This document shows, in pieces, positions 1 to 39,816 of a stretch of 39,816 nucleotides of DNA. Under the pieces are notes generated by a model, which saw only the letters and a program-made list of their open reading frames with translations, made no database searches and was not told the origin of the DNA. The position numbers were made by a program, and so were the translations under genes. The stretch lies in sequence record NC_011040.1. The stretch is one strand, 5' to 3'. How positions within the stretch are numbered: the first letter of the stretch is position 1; every line of letters starts with the position of its first letter. The stretch comes from Escherichia phage BA14.

Positions 1-194
1 TCTCATAGTTCATACAAAGTGTTTACCCCCTATGGCCTCCTTCAGTTCCCCAAAGAGTGCCACCCCTTATGGTAACTTATGGTTTACTTAATGTCAATCA
101 TTATGTGAGACATTGGGTGAATCATTGGGATGACCACTAGATATAGTGTGTGGGAGACCTTATGACCACTATATGTAGTCCTCTCTGTGTCCCT
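1..194. repeat. Left direct terminal repeat (exact copy of 39623-39816)
   Basis: Bases 1-194 are identical to 39623-39816 when read from the sequence; T7-family genomes carry terminal direct repeats of this size. Confidence 0.95.
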
Positions 195-1049: not shown

Positions 1050-1508
1050 ATGATTCATACTAAAGAACAAGCTAACGTTTTCTATGTACTGGTAAGCGCA
1101 TTCCGTTCTAACCTCGACGATGAGGTCAACATGAGTCGCCACCGCCACATGGTTAACAACCTGCGCAACGCACCGGGTCTTTATGGTAGCGTTGAGTCTA
1201 CCGATTTAACTGGCTGTTACCGCGAAGCCATCTCAAGTGCACCGACTGAAGAGAAAACAATCCGTGTACGTTGTAAAGACAAGGCACAGGTTCTCAATGT
1301 CGCACGTCTGGCTTGTAACGAGTGGGAACAAGATTGCGTACTGGTCTATAAGTCACAGACTCACACGGCTGGCTTAGTGTACGCTAAAGGCATCGACGGG
1401 TACAAAGCTGAACGTCTGCACGGTAGCTTCCAGCGCATCCCTAAAGGTGCACCAATTCAAGGCTGCTTCACGGTTGACGAGTTCGGCAAATACTGGCAGG
1501 TAGCATAA
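1050..1508 (+). CDS. 0.3: S-adenosylmethionine-cleaving anti-restriction protein (T3 gene 0.3-type SAMase/SAM lyase)
   Basis: 152-aa ORF with RBS GAGG; sequence closely matches my recollection of T3 gp0.3 and is unrelated to T7 Ocr; first gene after the early promoters. Confidence 0.8.
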   Translation: MIHTKEQANVFYVLVSAFRSNLDDEVNMSRHRHMVNNLRNAPGLYGSVESTDLTGCYREAISSAPTEEKTIRVRCKDKAQVLNVARLACNEWEQDCVLVYKSQTHTAGLVYAKGIDGYKAERLHGSFQRIPKGAPIQGCFTVDEFGKYWQVA

Positions 1509-1509
1509 C

Positions 1510-1707
1510 ATGGTCGCACTCTTTGTAATCACAATGTACGCTCTGATTGGGGCGTACTTCCTAAGAGACTTCCGCAAGGGTCTCAAGGTACACAAGGCTA
1601 ACTTCTCGCACTTGAAGTATGGCTTTCTACCACGATTCACAGTCCGTGAACGCAACGGGCGCTTTAAGGCTAACAAGGTTGGTATCTTCTATGTTGCAAC
1701 ACATTAA
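1510..1707 (+). CDS. Small early membrane protein, hypothetical (gene 0.4-0.6 interval)
   Basis: 65-aa ORF beginning 2 nt after the gene 0.3 stop; N-terminal hydrophobic helix (VALFVITMYALIGAYFL) then a basic tail; weak RBS. Confidence 0.45.
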   Translation: MVALFVITMYALIGAYFLRDFRKGLKVHKANFSHLKYGFLPRFTVRERNGRFKANKVGIFYVATH

Positions 1708-1811: not shown

Positions 1812-2912
1812 ATGAACTACACCGACATTCAGGCACGTCTGGCAATCATCAAGTCCCTCCCGATTAGCGAACTGGACAAGCGCCAGACTCTTCTGGTTGC
1901 ACTGGCTGCTGACATCGTGAACGGTGAGACAAGCGATGGCAACGACACTGAAGGCTCAAATGGCTTGGAGTATCAGGACTGGTGGAACACCTTGGGCGCT
2001 CTCATGCGTGATGCAGGTTTCCGCATGTTGGGTAATGGTCACTTCAGTGCGGCCTACTCGCACGAAATGTTACCGGGCCGAGTCATCAAGGTTGGCTTTA
2101 AGAAAGAGGATTCAGGCGCAGCATACACTGCATTCTGTAGGATGCACCAAGGCCGAGCGGGTATCCCTAACGTCTATCACGTAGCACGTCATGCAGGTTG
2201 CTATACGGTTGTTCTTGACAAGCTGGTAGCATGTGACCGCGATAATTATGACCATGAGGTATACGCTGACCTCGCACGTTACTTTGTGGAGTCGGATTGC
2301 CATGACGCAAGCGACTTTGCACCGGGTGACTACGAGTTCATTGAGACCTGCCAGCTTATCCGCAAGTTCTTCAAAGGGATTGCATCGTTTGACATGCACA
2401 GCGGGAACATTATGTTCTCTGAAGATGGCACACCATACATCACTGACCCGGTTAGCTTCTCACATGACCGTGAACGTGAGGACGGCTTCCCTCTGGACCC
2501 GGATGCACTGATTGCCGAGGTCGAGGCAATAGCTAACGAGCGCATGATTGAACGTTGTCGCAACCGCAAGGCCAAGCGTGACCCTAACGGAACCTTTCAG
2601 GTTAACCACAAGGCCGCAATGAAACGCCGCAAGCGCAACCGTAAGCTGCGTGCCAAACGTGGTGCCGAGGTTGCACAGCACTTTGTACAGCGTAGACATG
2701 AACAAAAGCAGGAACTAAGGGACGCTATGAGGGCGCAAGATTGGATGGGTGCGCACAACTGGCACAACATGTGGTTACACAACAACAATGCAGACGTAAT
2801 CATGATTGACAAGGTGAAAGCCTTTGAGTGGAAACAGGCAGAACGCATGGCTCTTATGCAATGCCGCTCACTTCCAATCGACAAGTTACTTGACGCACAA
2901 CTGCAAGGCTGA
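1812..2912 (+). CDS. 0.7: Serine/threonine protein kinase, host shutoff (gp0.7)
   Basis: 366 aa; conserved blocks GNGHFSAAYSH, RVIKVGFKKEDSGAAYTAFCRM, HSGNIMFS and YITDPVSFS match T7 gp0.7 as I recall it. Confidence 0.9.
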   Translation: MNYTDIQARLAIIKSLPISELDKRQTLLVALAADIVNGETSDGNDTEGSNGLEYQDWWNTLGALMRDAGFRMLGNGHFSAAYSHEMLPGRVIKVGFKKEDSGAAYTAFCRMHQGRAGIPNVYHVARHAGCYTVVLDKLVACDRDNYDHEVYADLARYFVESDCHDASDFAPGDYEFIETCQLIRKFFKGIASFDMHSGNIMFSEDGTPYITDPVSFSHDREREDGFPLDPDALIAEVEAIANERMIERCRNRKAKRDPNGTFQVNHKAAMKRRKRNRKLRAKRGAEVAQHFVQRRHEQKQELRDAMRAQDWMGAHNWHNMWLHNNNADVIMIDKVKAFEWKQAERMALMQCRSLPIDKLLDAQLQG

Positions 2913-2926
2913 TAAGGTGTATCTTC

Positions 2927-2951
2927 AAGGTCGGCACTGACTGCTGGCCTT
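2927..2951 (+). promoter_or_regulatory. RNase III-type hairpin upstream of gene 1 (R1 position)
   Basis: AAGGTCGGCA-ctgac-TGCTGGCCTT forms a 10-bp stem with G-U pairs; 35 nt upstream of the RNAP start. Confidence 0.5.
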
Positions 2952-2985
2952 TATAGATAAACTTTCTTAACAACGTGAGGCAACA

Positions 2986-5637
2986 ATGACTAACGTAATC
3001 AACGCACCAAAGAATGACTTCTCTGACATCGCTAATGCAATCCAGCCGTACAACATTCTGGCTGACCATTACGGTGCACAGCTTGCAGCTACGCAGCTTG
3101 AGTTGGAGCATGAAGCTCACACTGAGGGCGAGAAGCGTTTCCTTAAGGCGATGGAACGTCAAATCAAAGCGGGTGAGTTCGGTGATAACGCAGTGGCTAA
3201 ACCGCTCCTGTCATCCCTCGCACCAAAGTTCATCGAAGCGTGGAACACTTGGTTCACTGAAGTTGAAGCGAAGCGTGGCAAGCGTCCAGTGGCCTACAAT
3301 CTGGTACAGAAGGTTGCACCCGAAGCGGCTGCTTTCATCACACTTAAGGTCACACTCGCTTGCTTGACGAAAGAAGAGTTCACCAACCTGCAATCAGTCG
3401 CTACTAAGATTGGTCGTAGCATTGAAGATGAACTGCGTTTCGGTCGCATCCGTGACGAAGAAGCGAAGCACTTTAAGAACCACGTACAGGAGGCACTGAA
3501 CAAGCGCGTTGGTATCGTCTACAAGAAAGCATTCATGCAAGCCGTAGAAGGCAAGATGTTAGACGCTGGTCAACTGCAAACCAAGTGGACTACATGGACA
3601 CCTGAAGAATCAATTCACGTTGGTGTGCGCATGTTGGAACTGCTCATCGGGTCTACTGGTCTCGTTGAGTTACACCGACCGTTTGCTGGTAACGTTGAGA
3701 AGGATGGCGAGTACATTCAACTGACCGAACAATACGTTGACCTGTTATCTAAGCGTGCTGGTGCACTGGCTGCAATTGCTCCGATGTACCAACCATGTGT
3801 AGTTCCTCCGAAGCCTTGGACGAGTCCGGTCGGTGGTGGCTATTGGGCTGCTGGTCGCAAGCCTCTCTCTCTGGTTCGCACTGGTAGCAAGAAGGGACTT
3901 GAGCGTTACAACGATGTGTATATGCCTGAAGTTTACAAGGCGGTGAACATCGCACAGAATACTCCTTGGAAGATTAACAAGAAGGTTCTGGCAGTGGTCA
4001 ACGAGATTGTGAACTGGAAGCATTGCCCGGTTGACGATGTACCTGCTCTCGAACGTGGTGAACTGCCTATCAAACCTGAAGACATCGACACGAACGAAGC
4101 GGCTCTGAAAGCGTGGAAGAAAGCGGCCTCCGCAATCTATCGCAAAGAGAAAGCACGAGTTTCTCGCCGCATGAGCATGGAGTTCATGTTAGGTCAGGCC
4201 AATAAGTTCGCACAGTTCAAAGCTATCTGGTTCCCGATGAATATGGACTGGCGCGGTCGAGTGTATGCGGTCCCAATGTTTAACCCGCAAGGCAACGACA
4301 TGACCAAAGGCTTGCTGACGCTCGCTAAAGGTAAACCAATCGGTGTCGATGGGTACTACTGGCTGAAGATTCACGGTGCTAACACTGCTGGTGTGGACAA
4401 GGTGGACTTCGCTGAACGTATCAAGTTCATTGATGATAACCATGAGAACATCATGAGCGTTGCGGCTGACCCTATCGCTAACACTTGGTGGGCTGAACAA
4501 GATTCTCCGTTCTGCTTCCTCGCATTCTGCTTTGAGTATGCAGGAGTCCAGCACCACGGGATGAAATACAACTGCTCTCTTCCGCTGGCGTTTGATGGTA
4601 GCTGCTCCGGTATTCAGCACTTCTCCGCAATGCTTCGTGATGAAATTGGTGGTCGCGCTGTTAACTTACTGCCGAGCAAGGAAGTCCAAGACATCTACCG
4701 CATCGTAGCGGAACGTGTCAACGAGATTCTGAAGCAAGATGTAATCAATGGCACCGACAACGAAGTCGAAATCGTGACCAATAAGGACACTGGCGAAATC
4801 ACTGAGAAGCTCAAGCTGGGAACTAAGGAACTGGCTGGTCAATGGTTAGCATACGGTGTTACTCGTAAGGTGACTAAGCGTTCCGTTATGACCTTGGCGT
4901 ATGGTTCCAAAGAGTACGGCTTCCGTGACCAAGTGCTAGAGGATACCATTCAGCCAGCTATCGACGATGGCAAGGGCTTGATGTTCACTCAACCGAACCA
5001 AGCGGCTGGCTACATGGCTAAACTGATTTGGAACGCAGTAACGGTGACAGTGGTCGCAGCGGTTGAAGCAATGAACTGGCTGAAGTCTGCGGCTAAACTT
5101 CTGGCTGCTGAAGTAAAGGACAAGAAGACCAAAGAGGTTCTCCGTAAGCGCTGTGCGGTACATTGGGTTACTCCTGATGGCTTCCCGGTCTGGCAGGAAT
5201 ACAAGAAGCCAGTACAGACCCGCTTGAACCTGATGTTCTTAGGCCAGATTCGTCTACAGCCTACCGTGAACACCAACAAGGATAGCGGAATTGACGCACG
5301 TAAGCAGGAGTCAGGCATTGCACCTAACTTTGTCCACTCAATGGATGGTAGCCACCTCCGCATGACCGTGGTGCGCTCCTATGAGGTCTACGGTGTGGAA
5401 TCGTTCGCACTGATTCACGACTCCTTTGGTACTATCCCTGCTGATGCTGGCAACCTGTTCAAAGCAGTGCGTGAAACGATGGTCAACACTTACGAAGAGA
5501 ACGATGTACTTGCAGACTTCTATGAGCAATTTGCTGACCAGTTGCACGAATCACAGCTTGACAAGATGCCTGAGATGCCAGCTAAAGGTTCTCTGGACCT
5601 GCAAGAAATCCTGAAGTCAGACTTTGCGTTTGCCTAA
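2986..5637 (+). CDS. 1: Single-subunit DNA-directed RNA polymerase (gp1)
   Basis: 883 aa, near-collinear with T7 RNAP as I recall it (e.g. AIWFPMNMDWRGRVYAV, FDGSCSGIQHFSAML, specificity-loop region QPTVNTNKDSGIDARKQESG, C-terminal FAFA). Confidence 0.98.
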   Translation: MTNVINAPKNDFSDIANAIQPYNILADHYGAQLAATQLELEHEAHTEGEKRFLKAMERQIKAGEFGDNAVAKPLLSSLAPKFIEAWNTWFTEVEAKRGKRPVAYNLVQKVAPEAAAFITLKVTLACLTKEEFTNLQSVATKIGRSIEDELRFGRIRDEEAKHFKNHVQEALNKRVGIVYKKAFMQAVEGKMLDAGQLQTKWTTWTPEESIHVGVRMLELLIGSTGLVELHRPFAGNVEKDGEYIQLTEQYVDLLSKRAGALAAIAPMYQPCVVPPKPWTSPVGGGYWAAGRKPLSLVRTGSKKGLERYNDVYMPEVYKAVNIAQNTPWKINKKVLAVVNEIVNWKHCPVDDVPALERGELPIKPEDIDTNEAALKAWKKAASAIYRKEKARVSRRMSMEFMLGQANKFAQFKAIWFPMNMDWRGRVYAVPMFNPQGNDMTKGLLTLAKGKPIGVDGYYWLKIHGANTAGVDKVDFAERIKFIDDNHENIMSVAADPIANTWWAEQDSPFCFLAFCFEYAGVQHHGMKYNCSLPLAFDGSCSGIQHFSAMLRDEIGGRAVNLLPSKEVQDIYRIVAERVNEILKQDVINGTDNEVEIVTNKDTGEITEKLKLGTKELAGQWLAYGVTRKVTKRSVMTLAYGSKEYGFRDQVLEDTIQPAIDDGKGLMFTQPNQAAGYMAKLIWNAVTVTVVAAVEAMNWLKSAAKLLAAEVKDKKTKEVLRKRCAVHWVTPDGFPVWQEYKKPVQTRLNLMFLGQIRLQPTVNTNKDSGIDARKQESGIAPNFVHSMDGSHLRMTVVRSYEVYGVESFALIHDSFGTIPADAGNLFKAVRETMVNTYEENDVLADFYEQFADQLHESQLDKMPEMPAKGSLDLQEILKSDFAFA

Positions 5638-12856: not shown

Positions 12857-13069
12857 ATGTTTAAATTCATCAACACTCTCGGTAAACTGGTAGTTAAAAT
12901 GTACTTCCGTGAAGCTAAACGTCTGAACGACAAGGCACGTAAGGATGCAGAACAGGCTCAACGCTTGGCGAAACAGGCACGTCTGCTGTCTGAAGATGCA
13001 AGTGCTGGCGTTACGTCTGCTGCTAAGATTGCAGCGAAAGCAACCGACCTGAACAAGTTCTTCCTGTGA
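12857..13069 (+). CDS. 4.3: gp4.3-like small protein
   Basis: 70 aa from ATG 12857 with RBS AAGGAGA; MFKFINTLGKLVV...EAKRLND resembles T7 gp4.3 as I recall it. Confidence 0.75.
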   Translation: MFKFINTLGKLVVKMYFREAKRLNDKARKDAEQAQRLAKQARLLSEDASAGVTSAAKIAAKATDLNKFFL

Positions 13070-13248
13070 TGGTTACGATAACCCTTGTGCTCACTCTGAT
13101 AACTGTGAGCGGACAAACAATAAGTCAAGTCCCTATCACGGCACCGAAGGCTGAGGCATACGAGATATGCGAACAGCAAGGTCGCTCATGGTCTAAGGAC
13201 TTGATGAAGAACGGCAGGGTTTTCACTGCCAACTACAACTGCATCTAA
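13069..13248 (+). CDS. Hypothetical small protein with hydrophobic N-terminus
   Basis: 59 aa; ATG overlaps the 4.3 stop (TGATG); N-terminal VTITLVLTLITVSG. Confidence 0.45.
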   Translation: MVTITLVLTLITVSGQTISQVPITAPKAEAYEICEQQGRSWSKDLMKNGRVFTANYNCI

Positions 13249-14101: not shown

Positions 14102-14536
14102 GTGCATAAGTCTACTAAGATTCAGACGGTTGAATCCTTACTGTCTCGCACGGTTAGTGTTGAGGGCTGCTTGGAGTGGACAGGTTCCACAAGAGGTGGT
14201 TATGGTAGGGTGACAACTCAAGGAAAAGGATGGACAGTCATACGTTTAATTTGGACTCTTCAACACGGAGAGATACCAGAAGGTAACGTTGTACGCCACA
14301 CCTGCGACAACCCTAAGTGCTGCAACCCTGAACACCTTGTTGTAGGTACTCAAGGCGACAACATGCAGGATAGGTTTAACAGAGGGCGCTACTCGCTATT
14401 TCCACTGCCAAGTATGGTGGAAGCTCTTATCTCGCGTGGAATATCCCAAGCAAGTATTGCTGGATTCTTCTGCGTTAACCAAGGCCACATCTCTCGCATC
14501 CATCGTGGGGAGTATCGAGGTGCAAAGTGCTGTTAA
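14102..14536 (+). CDS. HNH homing endonuclease
   Basis: 144 aa from GTG 14102 (RBS GAAGGAGA 7 nt upstream); HNH signature RHTCDNPKCCNPEHLVVGTQGDNMQD. Confidence 0.85.
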   Translation: MHKSTKIQTVESLLSRTVSVEGCLEWTGSTRGGYGRVTTQGKGWTVIRLIWTLQHGEIPEGNVVRHTCDNPKCCNPEHLVVGTQGDNMQDRFNRGRYSLFPLPSMVEALISRGISQASIAGFFCVNQGHISRIHRGEYRGAKCC

Positions 14537-16656: not shown

Positions 16657-16950
16657 ATGGCTATTACTAAACGTTTTAAAGTATCATTCGAAATGACCGT
16701 TAAGGTTGACTCTGAGACCGAAGTTATGATTCAGGAACGTATCTTAGACTTAGCTCGTAGCGTTCGTGATGGTGAGGAAGTTAGCGCACAGGACAAAGAG
16801 TTACTCGTACAGGCTCTTACTCATGGTGCCGATGGTGTTGTTGCCTTTGCTGTTAAGCAGGGCATTCGTAATGAAATCCGTGAGATGGGCATCGAGCACC
16901 ACGGTGAGGGCATCAAGTTCGCACCAGCAACTATCCGCGAGGTGAAGTAA
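16657..16950 (+). CDS. gp5.5-like protein
   Basis: 97 aa, RBS CAGGAGA; position and size of T7 gp5.5; N-terminus MAITKRFKV. Confidence 0.65.
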   Translation: MAITKRFKVSFEMTVKVDSETEVMIQERILDLARSVRDGEEVSAQDKELLVQALTHGADGVVAFAVKQGIRNEIREMGIEHHGEGIKFAPATIREVK

Positions 16951-17159
16951 TGGGTGATTATCTACGTGTACTGGCGGCTATCAAAAGCTGCCCTAAGACC
17001 TTTCAGTCGAACTATGTGCGCAACAATGCGTCACTGGTGGCTGAGGCTGCAAGCCGTGGTCATATCTCTTGCCTATCAACTGATGGGCGTAATGCTGGCG
17101 CTTGGGAAGTAACAGGTGCTGGTGTCCGCTTCTTGACTAAGATGGGAGGTTGTGTATGA
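16950..17159 (+). CDS. 5.7: gp5.7
   Basis: 69 aa; AIKSCPKTFQSNYVRNNASLVAEAASRGHISC near-identical to T7 gp5.7 as I recall it. Confidence 0.85.
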   Translation: MGDYLRVLAAIKSCPKTFQSNYVRNNASLVAEAASRGHISCLSTDGRNAGAWEVTGAGVRFLTKMGGCV

Positions 17160-18070
17160 GCGCCATTACACTGAAGGAGTTCTATGAGTTACGCCAAGGC
17201 AAATCAGACAATGGTGTCTTGGTCATGGATGGTGACTGGCTGGTATTCCAAGCGATGGCAGCAAGTGAAGTAGAGACCGATTGGGGTGATGATGTGTGGA
17301 CATTAGAGTGCGACCACGGGAAAGCGTGGAACATTCTGGTTGACTCTATCAAGTCCTATGCGAGCCGTAAGAAGGCTTGGCGTGATGCACCTATCGTACT
17401 GGCCTTCACTGACGCTGTGAACTGGCGTAAGGAACTGGTGGACCCAACCTATAAGGAGAACCGTAAGGCATCCCGTAAGCCTGTAGGCTACCGTGCGTTC
17501 GTCGAGCGTGTTCAAGCCTGTGAGGACTGGACGTCTATCCTTGAGCCTCGCTTAGAGGGTGATGATGTAATGGGAATCATCGGGTCTGGTGCTAAACACT
17601 TTGGCTTCAAGAAGGCTGTGTTGGTCTCCTGTGATAAGGACTTTAAGACCATCCCTGATTGTGACTTCTTGTGGTGTACCACTGGTAACATCTTGACTCA
17701 AGACCAGACTACTGCTGACTACTGGCACATCTATCAGACCATCAAAGGTGACTTGACAGATGGCTACGGTGGCATTCCGGGCTGGGGCGAGACTACCGCT
17801 GAGTGGCTGGAGAACCCATACGCCTTTGAACAGGTTGAGAAAACTTTCAAGTCTGGTGCCCGTAAGGGACAGACAGTTCTCGAATGGAAGAAGGTGGACA
17901 TGGGAGACCGAACCTTGTGGGAAGCGATTGTGACCCTTGGTGCCAAAGCTGGGATGACCGAAGAGGAAATCATTAAGCAAGGCCAGATGGCTCGCATCCT
18001 TCGTTTCGAAGAGTACAACTTTATCGACAAGGAGATTTACCTATGGTCGCCGGAACAGTTGCGTTCGTAA
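17156..18070 (+). CDS. 6: 5'-3' exonuclease (gp6)
   Basis: 304 aa from ATG 17156 (RBS GGGAGGT); blocks VMDGDWLVFQAM, CDKDFKTIPDCDFLWCTTGNILTQ and QMARILRFEEYNFIDKEIYLW match T7 gp6. Confidence 0.95.
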   Translation: MSAITLKEFYELRQGKSDNGVLVMDGDWLVFQAMAASEVETDWGDDVWTLECDHGKAWNILVDSIKSYASRKKAWRDAPIVLAFTDAVNWRKELVDPTYKENRKASRKPVGYRAFVERVQACEDWTSILEPRLEGDDVMGIIGSGAKHFGFKKAVLVSCDKDFKTIPDCDFLWCTTGNILTQDQTTADYWHIYQTIKGDLTDGYGGIPGWGETTAEWLENPYAFEQVEKTFKSGARKGQTVLEWKKVDMGDRTLWEAIVTLGAKAGMTEEEIIKQGQMARILRFEEYNFIDKEIYLWSPEQLRS

Positions 18071-18129
18071 TGTTCGCAATCGTAGCCTTCGCTATGGTGT
18101 GGGCTGCATTTATAGCTAAGAGTGTGTAA
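18070..18129 (+). CDS. Possible 19-aa hydrophobic peptide (gene 6.3 position)
   Basis: ATG overlaps the gene 6 stop (TAATG); MFAIVAFAMVWAAFIAKSV; very short, weak support. Confidence 0.25.
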   Translation: MFAIVAFAMVWAAFIAKSV

Positions 18130-18157
18130 CTCTAGGCATTCTTCTCGACAGTGAAAT

Positions 18158-18180
18158 TAATACGACTCACTATTGAGAGG
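18158..18180 (+). promoter_or_regulatory. Phage RNAP promoter TAATACGACTCACTATTGAGAGG (phi6.5-like)
   Basis: Full T7-family match through -1; initiating GAGAGG. Confidence 0.8.
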
Positions 18181-18232
18181 GGTGCCTATATGATACCTAC
18201 TTTAAGTTCTAACTTTAAGGAGAACATTAATT

Positions 18233-18478
18233 ATGTTAACCCCTATCAAGAAGTATATGGAGAACCCACAAGATATTCCTAATGTTCCTCGGAGTGTTAT
18301 GGAGTATCTACAGGTTCAATACAATGCTGGATATGCTATTCAGTCAGGTCTAATCAACCGATTGAAACAGGCTGGATGGTCTGAAAGCTACATTGCCGGG
18401 TTCCTTGCTGGTCTCAACTATGCGTCCCAAACTCTGGATGACATGGAGGCAATCCGTAAGGAACAGGCTGAGTCCTAG
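18233..18478 (+). CDS. gp6.5-like protein
   Basis: 81-aa ORF with RBS TAAGGAGA after the 18158 promoter. Confidence 0.7.
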   Translation: MLTPIKKYMENPQDIPNVPRSVMEYLQVQYNAGYAIQSGLINRLKQAGWSESYIAGFLAGLNYASQTLDDMEAIRKEQAES

Positions 18479-33626: not shown

Positions 33627-35594
33627 ATGGCTAATAAAATTTCCACTGTACGTACTTACCCGCTGAACGGTGCCGTGAACTTCACGATTACCTTTGAGTA
33701 TTTAGCACGTAAGTTCGTCCAAGTGACACTCATCGGGAAAGACCGTAAAGAGTTGGTTCTCAATCAGGACTATCGCTTTACCACTAAGACCCAAATCACA
33801 ACCTCCCGTACATGGACTGCCGCTGATGGTTATCAGATGATTGAGATTCGTCGATTCACATCTGCAACCGACCGTCTGGTTGACTTTGCTGATGGCTCAA
33901 TCCTTCGTGCGTATGACCTTAACATCTCACAGATTCAGACGCTGCACGTAGCTGAAGAGGCACGAGACCTAACTGCGGATACCATTGGTGTCAACAATGA
34001 TGGTCACTTGGATGCCCGTGGTCGTAAGATTGTGAACCTAGCGTTCGCCACCAGTGACTATGATGCTGTCCCACTGAAGCAAGTAAAAGAGCGCGAGTCG
34101 TCTGCTTGGAACGCTGTTAACAAGGCCAATGAACATGCTAACCGCTCTAACACTGAGGCTAACCGCTCGCGAGATGAAGCTGACCGTGCAAAACGTGAAG
34201 CTGACCGCTCAACCCAACAGGCAGGTGTCTCTACGGCACAGGCAGTTGAGTCCAAGAAGCAAGCTGACCGTTCCAACTCTGAGGCTAACCGAGCTAAAGG
34301 TTATGCTGATAGTATGACCGCAAGTGTCGCTGAGGCCAAGAAGCAAGCTGACCGTTCCAACTCTGAGGCCAATCGTGCCCGTGATGAGGCCAATCGTGCT
34401 GCCGGAGAAGTGACTAAGGCTGCTGCTGAGGTTGCCAAAGCTGCTGCACACGTTGCTACCGCTAAAGGTCATGCTGACCGCGCCAACACTGAGGCTAACC
34501 GTTCCAAAGGTGAGGCTGACCGTGCTAAGGCCGAGGCCGATAAGTTGGGCAACATGAATGGCCTAGCTGAGACAGTTGAGAAGGTTGATGCTCCAGATGT
34601 CTACTTCAAGCGTAATGTGATTGCTGGCCACCGTCTGGAGACTAAGGGTGGTTCCCATCTACACCCTAACGAGTTGAAATTGGTGAACACTAAGTCTCCT
34701 GACCAGCACTTTATCGTACAAGCATGGGGCACTGGTGACCCAAACAATAGGGCACAGGTGTTTGAACTTAGGGATAACTTAGGTCCATATGCGTTTTACA
34801 TTCAGCGAATGAAGAAGACTGACCAAACGTGGCAAATGAGTGTGAATGGCACTGTTAGCTGTGTATCCGTTGAGGCTGGTAAGGGGTTCATCTCTAAGGA
34901 CAGTACAGGCTCTATTCAAATGAAAACGTGGGGTGGCAGTTGGAACCAGTGGACATCAAATGCTGTTCCAGACATTCAGCATGACATCGAAGCCCAACAT
35001 GATGCGGCTTATCTGCTGGAGAGGGCAACCATTTGGGGCAAAGAGCACCTGTATGCTAAGTGCTTATACAACAATGGCGGTGGCGCTAACTTCTTTATCA
35101 GACATTATCTCCGTGGGACTTACTTCGACTTCAGGAGTGATGGTACTCTTAGTGGCTCGACTGGTTGGTATATCCCGCCAGATGGCAACCTGTACATCAA
35201 GAAATATGGACTGTATATTGATACGTGGGTTAACAATCGCTTGGGCGAACACGCCTACAATAAGGGCGAAGTCAACAACTTGGTCAATGGTCGTCTTACC
35301 GCTGGTCAAGGTGATGGTCGATATGTCCGCAAGAACGCTGGGTGGGCTGAGGTCTGGAAAGGCTCTGCTGGTGGTGGTGTCTCCGTAGGTCTCTCACAGG
35401 ATGTCCGATGGAGAACTATCTGGATTCAAACTCAAGGACGCTGGAACCCGGTTCAGATTGGCGATAACGGGCCATACTACATCTCTTCTATGGGTGGGTG
35501 GCTACAGTTTACAATCTCCAACAACGGGAGAACTTTCCGAAATGATGCTGACCGTAGTTCTGTACCTACGAGAATCTTAGTTCAAAACCAATAA
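33627..35594 (+). CDS. 17: Tail fiber protein (gp17)
   Basis: 655 aa; N-terminal ~150 aa and C-terminal ~90 aa match T7 gp17; central coiled-coil region is repeat-expanded. Confidence 0.95.
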   Translation: MANKISTVRTYPLNGAVNFTITFEYLARKFVQVTLIGKDRKELVLNQDYRFTTKTQITTSRTWTAADGYQMIEIRRFTSATDRLVDFADGSILRAYDLNISQIQTLHVAEEARDLTADTIGVNNDGHLDARGRKIVNLAFATSDYDAVPLKQVKERESSAWNAVNKANEHANRSNTEANRSRDEADRAKREADRSTQQAGVSTAQAVESKKQADRSNSEANRAKGYADSMTASVAEAKKQADRSNSEANRARDEANRAAGEVTKAAAEVAKAAAHVATAKGHADRANTEANRSKGEADRAKAEADKLGNMNGLAETVEKVDAPDVYFKRNVIAGHRLETKGGSHLHPNELKLVNTKSPDQHFIVQAWGTGDPNNRAQVFELRDNLGPYAFYIQRMKKTDQTWQMSVNGTVSCVSVEAGKGFISKDSTGSIQMKTWGGSWNQWTSNAVPDIQHDIEAQHDAAYLLERATIWGKEHLYAKCLYNNGGGANFFIRHYLRGTYFDFRSDGTLSGSTGWYIPPDGNLYIKKYGLYIDTWVNNRLGEHAYNKGEVNNLVNGRLTAGQGDGRYVRKNAGWAEVWKGSAGGGVSVGLSQDVRWRTIWIQTQGRWNPVQIGDNGPYYISSMGGWLQFTISNNGRTFRNDADRSSVPTRILVQNQ

Positions 35595-36654: not shown

Positions 36655-37212
36655 ATGGCTACTACAAACTCAAGAACCCGCACACTCTGGACCATCAATG
36701 GTCGCTCACCAGACAGTCGTGATGTGTATGACCACAACAATATTGGCCTTCGTGTTGGGCGTATCGACATCCCAGCTTCGGAGATGGTTAAGGTTGAGGG
36801 CTACTCTAAGGTTGAATACATTATCCAACTGAGTGATGGCACCACTGAGCAACATGCTACGTTCGAGACCCTTATGTCCACTTGGGGTGGCTCCGTCGAG
36901 TCTAAACCGGGTAGCGGGTTCATGACGGTGTTCCTGAATGAGCAAAGCACTGAGCGACTCGGTATGGTTCGAATCGACGTATACAAAGAGTGGACTGGTG
37001 CTGACCCTGAACCTGAAGGTGGTAGGGCTTCCTTAGTTAGTGCAACGCTTTCTGCGTCTGATAGTGCATTTGGTACACAGTTCGTGGATAGCGAAGGGAA
37101 GAGTGCTTCCGTTATGTTCCAACCTAGTGACATCGACGGGGCTGTATCTAAGACCGACACTATCAAGGCTCTTGAGAAGCGCATCGCTGACTTAGAGAAA
37201 GCTGCCAAGTAA
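36655..37212 (+). CDS. Hypothetical late protein, unplaced between spanins and large terminase
   Basis: 185-aa ORF with strong RBS GAAGGAGA; starts 2 nt after the Rz stop; no TM segment; C-terminal amphipathic stretch TIKALEKRIADLEKAAK. Confidence 0.7.
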   Translation: MATTNSRTRTLWTINGRSPDSRDVYDHNNIGLRVGRIDIPASEMVKVEGYSKVEYIIQLSDGTTEQHATFETLMSTWGGSVESKPGSGFMTVFLNEQSTERLGMVRIDVYKEWTGADPEPEGGRASLVSATLSASDSAFGTQFVDSEGKSASVMFQPSDIDGAVSKTDTIKALEKRIADLEKAAK

Positions 37213-39622: not shown

Positions 39623-39816
39623 TCTCATAGTTCATACAAAGTGTTTACCCCCTATGGCCTCCTTCAGTTCCCCAAAGAGTGCCACCCCTTATGGTAACTT
39701 ATGGTTTACTTAATGTCAATCATTATGTGAGACATTGGGTGAATCATTGGGATGACCACTAGATATAGTGTGTGGGAGACCTTATGACCACTATATGTAG
39801 TCCTCTCTGTGTCCCT
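39623..39816. repeat. Right direct terminal repeat (exact copy of 1-194)
   Basis: Identical to bases 1-194. Confidence 0.95.

Follow-up and report, generated by a model that had tools for sequence, protein, structure and literature searches.

The genome of Escherichia phage BA14 is that of a complete Berlinvirus whose slot between genes 5.7 and 6 stands empty, and comparison with its relatives makes it probable that this state arose by a tolerated and recurrent loss of an ancestral gene 5.9, a loss that may have been advantageous. The window that we analyzed is the whole stretch of 39,816 nt (sequence record NC_011040.1), a complete T7-like genome bounded by perfect direct terminal repeats of 194 bp. 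Over 89–95% of their length, its first 25 kb show 90–94% identity to PYPS50, PZJ0206, 285P, FE44 and Kvp1, all of which are classed as Berlinvirus, and both nucleotide similarity and gene order place BA14 in this genus. The gene order is collinear with that of 285P and PYPS50. The regions of BA14 that are missing in 285P or PYPS50 comprise an HNH homing endonuclease (14102–14536), a 60-aa open reading frame (13066–13248), tail-fibre variation and non-coding DNA.

At the junction of interest, positions 17140–17160 of BA14 read AGATGGGAGG TTGTGTATGAG (the same stretch unbroken: AGATGGGAGGTTGTGTATGAG). The start codon of gene 6 (17156–17158) overlaps the stop codon of gene 5.7 (17157–17159) in the tetranucleotide ATGA (4 nt, 17156–17159), without any intergenic nucleotide, and both flanking open reading frames are intact and of full length (Table 1). 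T7 is arranged in the order 5.7 (17150–17359), 5.9 (17359–17517) and 6 (17504–18406), its gene 5.9 coding for 52 aa. An initial annotation, made from the letters of BA14, had identified the flanking genes as 5.7 and the exonuclease gene 6, had read their overlap as leaving no room for gene 5.9 and had placed that gene between 5.7 and 6 in T7; the sequence, the family and T7 matches of the two proteins and the T7 coordinates bear out all of this.

Table 1. Features around the junction of genes 5.7 and 6 in BA14 (positions in the window)
Feature	Position	Strand	Basis
Gene 5.5 (97 aa, Gp5.5-like H-NS inhibitor)	16657..16950	+	phrog_1452, E 2.6e-33; annotated in all relatives
Gene 5.7 (69 aa), stop codon TGA at 17157-17159	16950..17159	+	phrog_1334, E 6.4e-39; 83% identity to T7 gp5.7 along the full length of 69 residues
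GGAGG Shine-Dalgarno sequence, 6 nt 5' of the gene 6 ATG	17145..17149	+	Sequence reading
TATGAG, lone surviving copy of the short direct repeat seen on either side of the cassette in relatives; putative deletion/fusion junction, holding the ATGA overlap	17155..17160	+	Alignments with PYPS50 and repeats in relatives
Gene 6 (304 aa, 5'-3' exonuclease)	17156..18070	+	phrog_107, E 3.4e-77; 64% identity to T7 gp6 in an alignment that starts at residue 1

The protein whose gene is missing in BA14, gp5.9 of T7, has been resolved in structures with RecBCD (PDB 8B1R) and with MukEF (PDB 9GMD). Its family is defined by Pfam PF25708 (phrog_9014/4790/6234), against which scores of 27.8 bits (T7 gp5.9) and 53–69 bits (Berlinvirus 5.9 proteins) were obtained; the gathering threshold is passed by every Berlinvirus 5.9 protein tested. 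The latter share the N-terminal ~29 residues and the Pfam family with T7 gp5.9, but they are longer and differ in their C-terminal half, which carries a GVDNW.GY motif. To our knowledge, the Berlinvirus-type gp5.9 has not been tested directly on RecBCD.

A six-frame search for a gp5.9-like protein, which the initial annotation had proposed as a check, returned nothing but noise. Using tblastn with the gp5.9 proteins of T7 and PZJ0206, we found no homolog in BA14 (best E 0.46), whereas the two queries detected each other in control loci at ~1e-7. A family HMM built from 11 members and run unfiltered against all 1063 six-frame segments of BA14 of at least 20 aa reached a best E of 0.95, as compared to 2.6e-22, 5e-21, 4e-19 and 3e-3 obtained on the same scale for four family members outside the training set. 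Likewise, phmmer with ten gp5.9 proteins and three proteins of a different type from the same slot ('alt', see below) gave a best E of 0.38, and by this method BA14 has no homolog of the 'alt' protein encoded by LPST144 and BP12A. Hence, no member of PF25708 is encoded anywhere in the six-frame translation of BA14, and the homolog elsewhere in the genome that would have spoken against the reading of the initial annotation is absent.

No chance model applies to the absence of a gene, and what has to be asked is whether the gene is truly missing. A query of 341 nt with the junction at its centre matched without interruption in ten named isolates (285P, CarlSpitteler (Bas68), Carena, vB_Eco_D226, nasanit, vB_EcoP_S523, BSP161, vB_SEqdws-315, P483 and VB_Ship_A7), and vB_STy-RN5i1 is likewise contiguous at this point, giving at least 11 isolates with an empty slot in all. 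Each of them is annotated with the same 4-nt overlap of 5.7 and 6 at the identical position and with no 5.9 gene, and BA14 and the 11 isolates have an identical junction structure in which the ATGA overlap is preceded by GGAGGTTGYN. A degenerate pattern of the junction finds five of the empty-slot isolates in IMG/VR. Since eleven independently sequenced relatives, which come from several laboratories and countries, possess the identical contiguous junction, the absence is genuine. The chance that it is a sequencing or assembly artefact is negligible, as the genome is also complete with perfect terminal repeats and neither flanking gene is damaged.

The absence of 5.9 is a common polymorphism of Berlinvirus, real but ordinary. 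285P (GQ468526) and the other Berlinviruses without 5.9 share both genus and gene order with BA14. In the junction region these phages are 90–94% identical to BA14, but their junction-flank haplotypes differ from that of BA14, and no empty-slot isolate is its nearest neighbour at the junction. Scans of IMG/VR with the left-flank haplotype of BA14 and with a generic empty junction returned seven contigs, six of which match isolates already covered while the seventh (L026) bears a divergent 5.9; none of them is closer to BA14. Every isolate in which we found the slot empty had E. coli, Shigella or Salmonella as its propagation host. No empty slot is seen in any Yersinia-phage record within the top 60 matches, which is a hint only given that the Y. 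pestis phages are near-clonal. Public databases have contained genomes with the empty arrangement for years (that of 285P among them), and the dispensability of the gene was already known. In the literature, we did not find an explicit treatment of Berlinviruses lacking 5.9; the papers handle gp5.9 only in T7 and T3.

The 5.7/6 junction of Berlinviruses is a hypervariable, multi-state accessory-gene slot. It harbors a gp5.9 of 59–61 aa in PYPS50, P694, ErnstBeyeler/Bas67, JSS1, PhiV-1, Berlin, Kvp1 and PZJ0206, and a divergent 73-aa PF25708 protein in an IMG/VR contig (L026). LPST144 and BP12A carry the unrelated acidic 'alt' protein of 95–97 aa (phrog_18166, pI 4.2–4.7, no PDB relative), P151 possesses 5.9 and the acidic protein together, and the slot of FE44 is occupied by an HNH homing endonuclease. 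One left-flank haplotype (…GACTAAGATGGGAGG…) is common to BA14, FE44, BP12A and L026 and contains four different slot contents. The first 60 nt of gene 6 are recoded in FE44, with 20 mismatches to BA14.

The closest relatives bearing 5.9 are Yersinia phage PYPS50 and Enterobacter phage PZJ0206, which are 93–97% identical to BA14 across most of the genome and have the same 5.5, 5.7 and 6 genes. Both encode a gp5.9 of 59–60 aa (PF25708, 67–69 bits) on 176–179 nt between two TATGAG repeats, whereas BA14 retains a single TATGAG and nothing else of the cassette. BLAST alignment of BA14 with PYPS50 yields one match of 96.1% identity over 2.6 kb up to 17160 and another of 97.3% over 4.6 kb from 17155 on. 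The two alignments overlap by exactly TATGAG (17155–17160), and the extra DNA in PYPS50 amounts to 176 nt, which is gene 5.9; PZJ0206 shows the same pattern with 179 extra nt. In-register exact repeats of 5–7 nt, (T)ATGAG(Y), are found at both borders of the cassette in 11 of the 13 relatives with a cassette that we examined, because in these phages every slot gene, like gene 6, starts with (T)ATGAG(Y) about 6–7 nt past a GGAGG. Excision of one repeat together with the intervening DNA from a relative recreates the BA14 sequence exactly, with no other scar. As judged from the junctions of the 13 cassette-bearing relatives, the GGAGG that precedes gene 6 in BA14 drives gene 5.9 in the relatives that bear it. 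The same excision puts this Shine-Dalgarno sequence of the cassette before gene 6, so that the loss is seamless for the adjoining genes.

Deletion mutants of T7 classically arise between short direct repeats. The event that we propose for BA14 resembles them in the precise loss of DNA between repeats of a few nucleotides with one copy left behind, but unlike these mutants it is reconstructed solely from the comparison of relatives. A 6-nt repeat on a start codon is to be expected at any translationally coupled gene pair and is by itself no proof of slippage.

A PF25708 gene occupies exactly the position between 5.7 and 6 in T7, in T3, in the phiYeO3-12-like phage AP5 (PMC4283147) and in most Berlinviruses. 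Since the family stands at the same place in T7, T3 and AP5, loss is to be preferred over repeated gain. Gene 5.9 would be ancestral at this slot in T7, T3, the phiYeO3-12 group and most Berlinviruses and would have been removed precisely in BA14 with one (T)ATGAG left. Recombination or replication slippage between the microrepeats may have fused the stop of 5.7 to the start of gene 6, and gene 6 would have inherited the ribosome-binding site of the cassette, leaving the expression of the neighbouring genes undisturbed. The reverse direction, with an originally empty slot into which 5.9 and the other cassettes were inserted later, appears very improbable to us. The slot does accept foreign genes (HNH in FE44; 'alt' in LPST144, BP12A and P151) and the gp5.9 proteins are split into divergent subtypes, which speaks for insertion, but the subtypes have a common N-terminal motif, the gene sits at the exact position in three genera, and in the flank trees the empty Berlinviruses occupy scattered tips rather than the base.

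The flanks of the junction tend to favor repeated loss within the genus. To the left, BA14 is nearest to the cassette-bearing FE44, from which it departs at 1 of 206 nt and at 3 of 500 nt (99.4%), and the last 60 nt before the junction are matched without a mismatch by BP12A, which also bears a cassette. To the right, the nearest phages are PYPS50 and LPST144 (6 mismatches in 232 nt each), again both with a cassette, whereas every empty-slot phage has 11 or more mismatches to BA14 in the 206 nt to the left and 13 or more in the 232 nt to the right. In neighbour-joining trees of both flanks the empty-slot isolates are scattered. Furthermore, there are three haplotypes of the empty junction, each of which has its own 5.9-bearing counterpart, alike on both sides: TTGTG/GCGCCATT corresponds to PYPS50, TTGCG/GCGCAATT to ErnstBeyeler and JSS1, and TTGCG/GTGCAATT to PhiV-1. 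Because cassette-bearing phages are the nearest at the junction, the empty-slot phages are scattered and the haplotypes are paired in this way, we favor recurrent loss.

The region is also strongly mosaic, with a left flank close to FE44 and a right flank close to PYPS50, and an empty allele could have come by recombination. BA14 may have gained it ready-made through its conserved flanks, by homologous recombination with another Berlinvirus lacking 5.9 during co-infection, and we regard this route as possible, albeit distinctly less likely than a deletion. It would account for the identical junction position in all of the at least 11 empty isolates, and it is in keeping with the three deeply divergent allele groups of gene 5.5, the mutual discordance of the flank trees and the differing affinities of the two BA14 flanks. 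On both sides, however, the sequences beside the junction have their nearest counterparts among cassette-bearing phages, ahead of every empty-slot phage sampled. The pairing of three empty haplotypes with three different 5.9-bearing ones likewise fits better with repeated independent deletions, within the limits of the sampling.

The initial annotation had offered two explanations for the missing gene, namely that another, unplaced gene supplies its function or that the phage does not need it. Its account of the absence and of the overlapping genes holds, and the second explanation is supported, but the proposed supply by an unplaced gene found no support. An anti-RecBCD function retained through a non-homologous gene elsewhere in BA14 is conceivable insofar as small genes of unknown function are present (orf60, 13066–13248; orf185, 36655–37212; 1.6, 4.3, 4.7 and 6.5) and the known RecBCD inhibitors lambda Gam, gp5.9 and Abc2 are mutually non-homologous (PMC9836394), so that a new type would evade sequence searches. 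We nevertheless consider it improbable. None of the 28 small BA14 proteins is a small (50–75 aa), strongly acidic protein resembling a DNA mimic: the most acidic is the small terminase subunit gp18 (pI 4.61), followed by the holin, gp6.5 and orf185 (~4.9), as compared to a pI of 4.05–4.4 for gp5.9. We rejected orf60 and orf185 as substitutes because they occur equally with and without 5.9, at 91–100% identity in 285P, S523, BSP161 and CarlSpitteler, which lack it, and in PZJ0206 and PhiV-1, which bear it; further 5.9-bearing carriers are ErnstBeyeler and JSS1 (orf60) and ETEP21B (orf185). The comparisons of BA14 revealed no gene specific to phages without 5.9. The sole gene missing from both whole-genome comparators is the open reading frame at 14102–14536, which as an HNH homing endonuclease was dismissed as a candidate. 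A further open reading frame (247–423) was discarded as it has no family match and sits in the non-coding left end.

Chi sites (GCTGGTGG) are overrepresented in BA14, with 8 occurrences vs 1.7 expected and none of 100 shuffles reaching 8. They are, however, no commoner than in a relative bearing 5.9: 285P, without the gene, has 7 and PYPS50, with it, has 12. Of the seven sites on the plus strand of BA14, six are in-frame Ala-Gly-Gly codons (GCT GGT GG), the genes concerned being 7.3, 9, 10, 16 and 17. We thus rejected the excess as a compensation for the loss of 5.9 and ascribe it to a codon and composition effect common to the genus.

Gp5.9 acts as a dimeric DNA mimic and occludes the site at which RecBCD binds DNA ends (PMC9836394). 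That BA14 does not need it is supported by what is known of its dispensability: gp5.9 is given as non-essential for T7 and T3 in a statement of PMC7617805 that cites Lin 1992, the RefSeq record of T3 marks 5.9 as 'not essential', and at least 11 isolates are viable without 5.9. The protein triggers abortive infection by retron Ec48, its expression is lethal to Ec48+ cells and T7 escapers carry the 5.9 substitution L23P (10.1101/2020.06.21.156273). It is also toxic in P2 OLD+ cells, and the systems listed as being activated by RecBCD inhibitors are Ec48, Se72, AbpAB, DRT3 and OLD (10.64898/2026.07.10.737580). [quoted passage not shown] Toxicity and the triggering of guard systems on the one hand and the block of Druantia III/Zorya II on the other make gene 5.9 a conditional asset, a setting in which a presence/absence polymorphism is expected.

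Following the loss that we propose, BA14 would replicate without a DNA-mimic inhibitor of RecBCD (and MukBEF) and without a detectable substitute. The loss may have been neutral, or it may have been favored where hosts kill upon inhibition of RecBCD (retron Ec48, Se72, P2 OLD and others) or on account of the toxicity of gp5.9 itself. Laboratory escapers (T7 5.9 L23P on Ec48; lambda gam mutants on Ec48, Se72 and P2 OLD) are, like BA14, viable without a functional RecBCD inhibitor and so evade abortive infection systems that guard RecBCD. They are point or knockout mutants obtained under defined selection, whereas BA14 is a natural isolate in which the whole gene is missing. Tentatively, the 5.7/6 junction might be viewed as a counter-defence slot of fast turnover, whose emptiness in BA14 and at least 11 other phages would represent an adaptive escape from RecBCD guards (Ec48/Se72, OLD, AbpAB, DRT3), that is, the natural equivalent of the 5.9 and gam escapers, brought about by repeated deletion at the ATGAG microrepeat. 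We hold this reading to be possible rather than probable.

By itself, the finding is minor, as a dispensable accessory gene is missing in BA14 just as in many published relatives. The analysis adds a precise anatomy of the loss and identifies the 5.7/6 junction as a multi-state accessory slot. For annotators and for the screening of therapeutic phages, it is a caution that the anti-defence gene set of T7 is not present in every T7-like phage. The natural polymorphism at a seamlessly excisable slot also provides matched phage pairs, for instance Bas67 with 5.9 and Bas68 without it. Beyond this, its value is a modest one, as an example of a trade-off in the arms race between phages and their hosts, in which an inhibitor of a nuclease turns into a liability when the hosts monitor that nuclease.

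In FE44, the junction of genes 5.7 and 6, which is empty in the window, harbors an HNH homing endonuclease gene where gene 5.9 would stand. The encoded protein shares 52% identity over 84 residues with an HNH endonuclease of the window, whose gene is flanked by gene 4.7 and the DNA polymerase gene and which is absent from both 285P, a relative without gene 5.9, and PYPS50, a relative that bears it. The initial 60 nt of FE44 gene 6 (L033 1448-1510) have undergone heavy recoding and differ from the window at 20 positions, and the 500 nt to the left of the slot are 99.4% identical to it. This pattern suggests that the FE44 endonuclease targets the 5.7-6 junction or the 5′ end of gene 6.

A different occupant of the same slot is an acidic protein of 95-97 aa (pI 4.2-4.7) unrelated to gp5.9, which it either replaces or accompanies in LPST144, BP12A and P151. 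Searches of this protein against Pfam and PDB gave no matches, its only hit being a weak one to phrog_2294, and no homolog was found in the window. We regard it as a further candidate among small anti-defence proteins.

The gp5.9 family itself is also variable. An IMG/VR contig (L026) encodes a divergent 73-aa member (pI 4.4), whose N-terminal half is different and whose adjoining gp5.7 is 100% identical to the gp5.7 protein of the window. Berlinvirus gp5.9 (L001 1259-1441, L014 1167-1346) has only the N-terminal ~29 residues in common with the T7 protein (L003 960-1118), which is the structurally characterised one; T3 gp5.9 (52 aa) is of the T7 type. In its C-terminal half, Berlinvirus gp5.9 has a conserved (L)xAxGVDNWxGY motif, found as well in the otherwise different small metagenomic proteins P0007-P0009. 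RecBCD inhibition appears to have been ascribed to the 59-61 aa Berlinvirus proteins from annotation only.

Coordinates of features in the window and in comparison loci (L numbers)
Feature	Sequence	Position	Strand	Details
Chi	window	7600, 18934, 19069, 21401, 22690, 30735, 35367	+	GCTGGTGG
Chi	window	26370	-	GCTGGTGG
Terminal repeats	window	1-194, 39623-39816		direct, 194 bp, perfect
Gene 0.3	window	1050-1508	+	S-adenosylmethionine lyase; PF23780, E 8e-44
HNH homing endonuclease	window	14102-14536	+	144 aa; PF13392; phrog_1872
68-nt repeat unit	window	34125-34528	+	5 imperfect copies inside tail-fibre gene 17
Conserved protein	window	36655-37212	+	185 aa; no assigned function; phrog_20446; pI 4.9
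HNH homing endonuclease	L033 (FE44, NC_022744)	1060-1446		128 aa; 5.7-6 slot
Acidic protein	L021 (LPST144)	1167-1454		phrog_18166; 5.7-6 slot
Acidic protein	L022 (BP12A)	1167-1460		phrog_18166; 5.7-6 slot
Acidic protein	L023 (P151)	1346-1639		phrog_18166; 5.7-6 slot
Divergent gp5.9	L026 (IMGVR_UViG_2974609713_000001)	2832-3053		73 aa; PF25708, 35 bits

The perfect terminal repeats identify the window as a complete linear genome in T7 orientation. Within gene 17, the repeat units, which match the reference copy at 62-79% identity, lie in a region rich in Ala-Asn/Asp-Arg-Ser/Ala codons, immediately upstream of a segment (34582-35162) without a match in 285P or PYPS50. The gene of the 185-aa protein is located between the Rz spanin and large terminase genes, where PYPS50 and Yersinia pestis phages have a longer, only partly related protein.

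As in T3, gene 0.3 of the window encodes a lyase, whereas that of T7 encodes the DNA mimic Ocr; therefore, both known DNA-mimic proteins of T7 are missing from this phage. Eight copies of the E. coli Chi octamer occur in the window, where shuffled sequences predict 1.7. The coding strand holds seven of the eight, six of these being in-frame Ala-Gly-Gly codons, and counts in relatives are similar or higher (PYPS50, 12; 285P, 7). The abundance of Chi is a codon effect across the whole genus, unrelated to the loss of gene 5.9.
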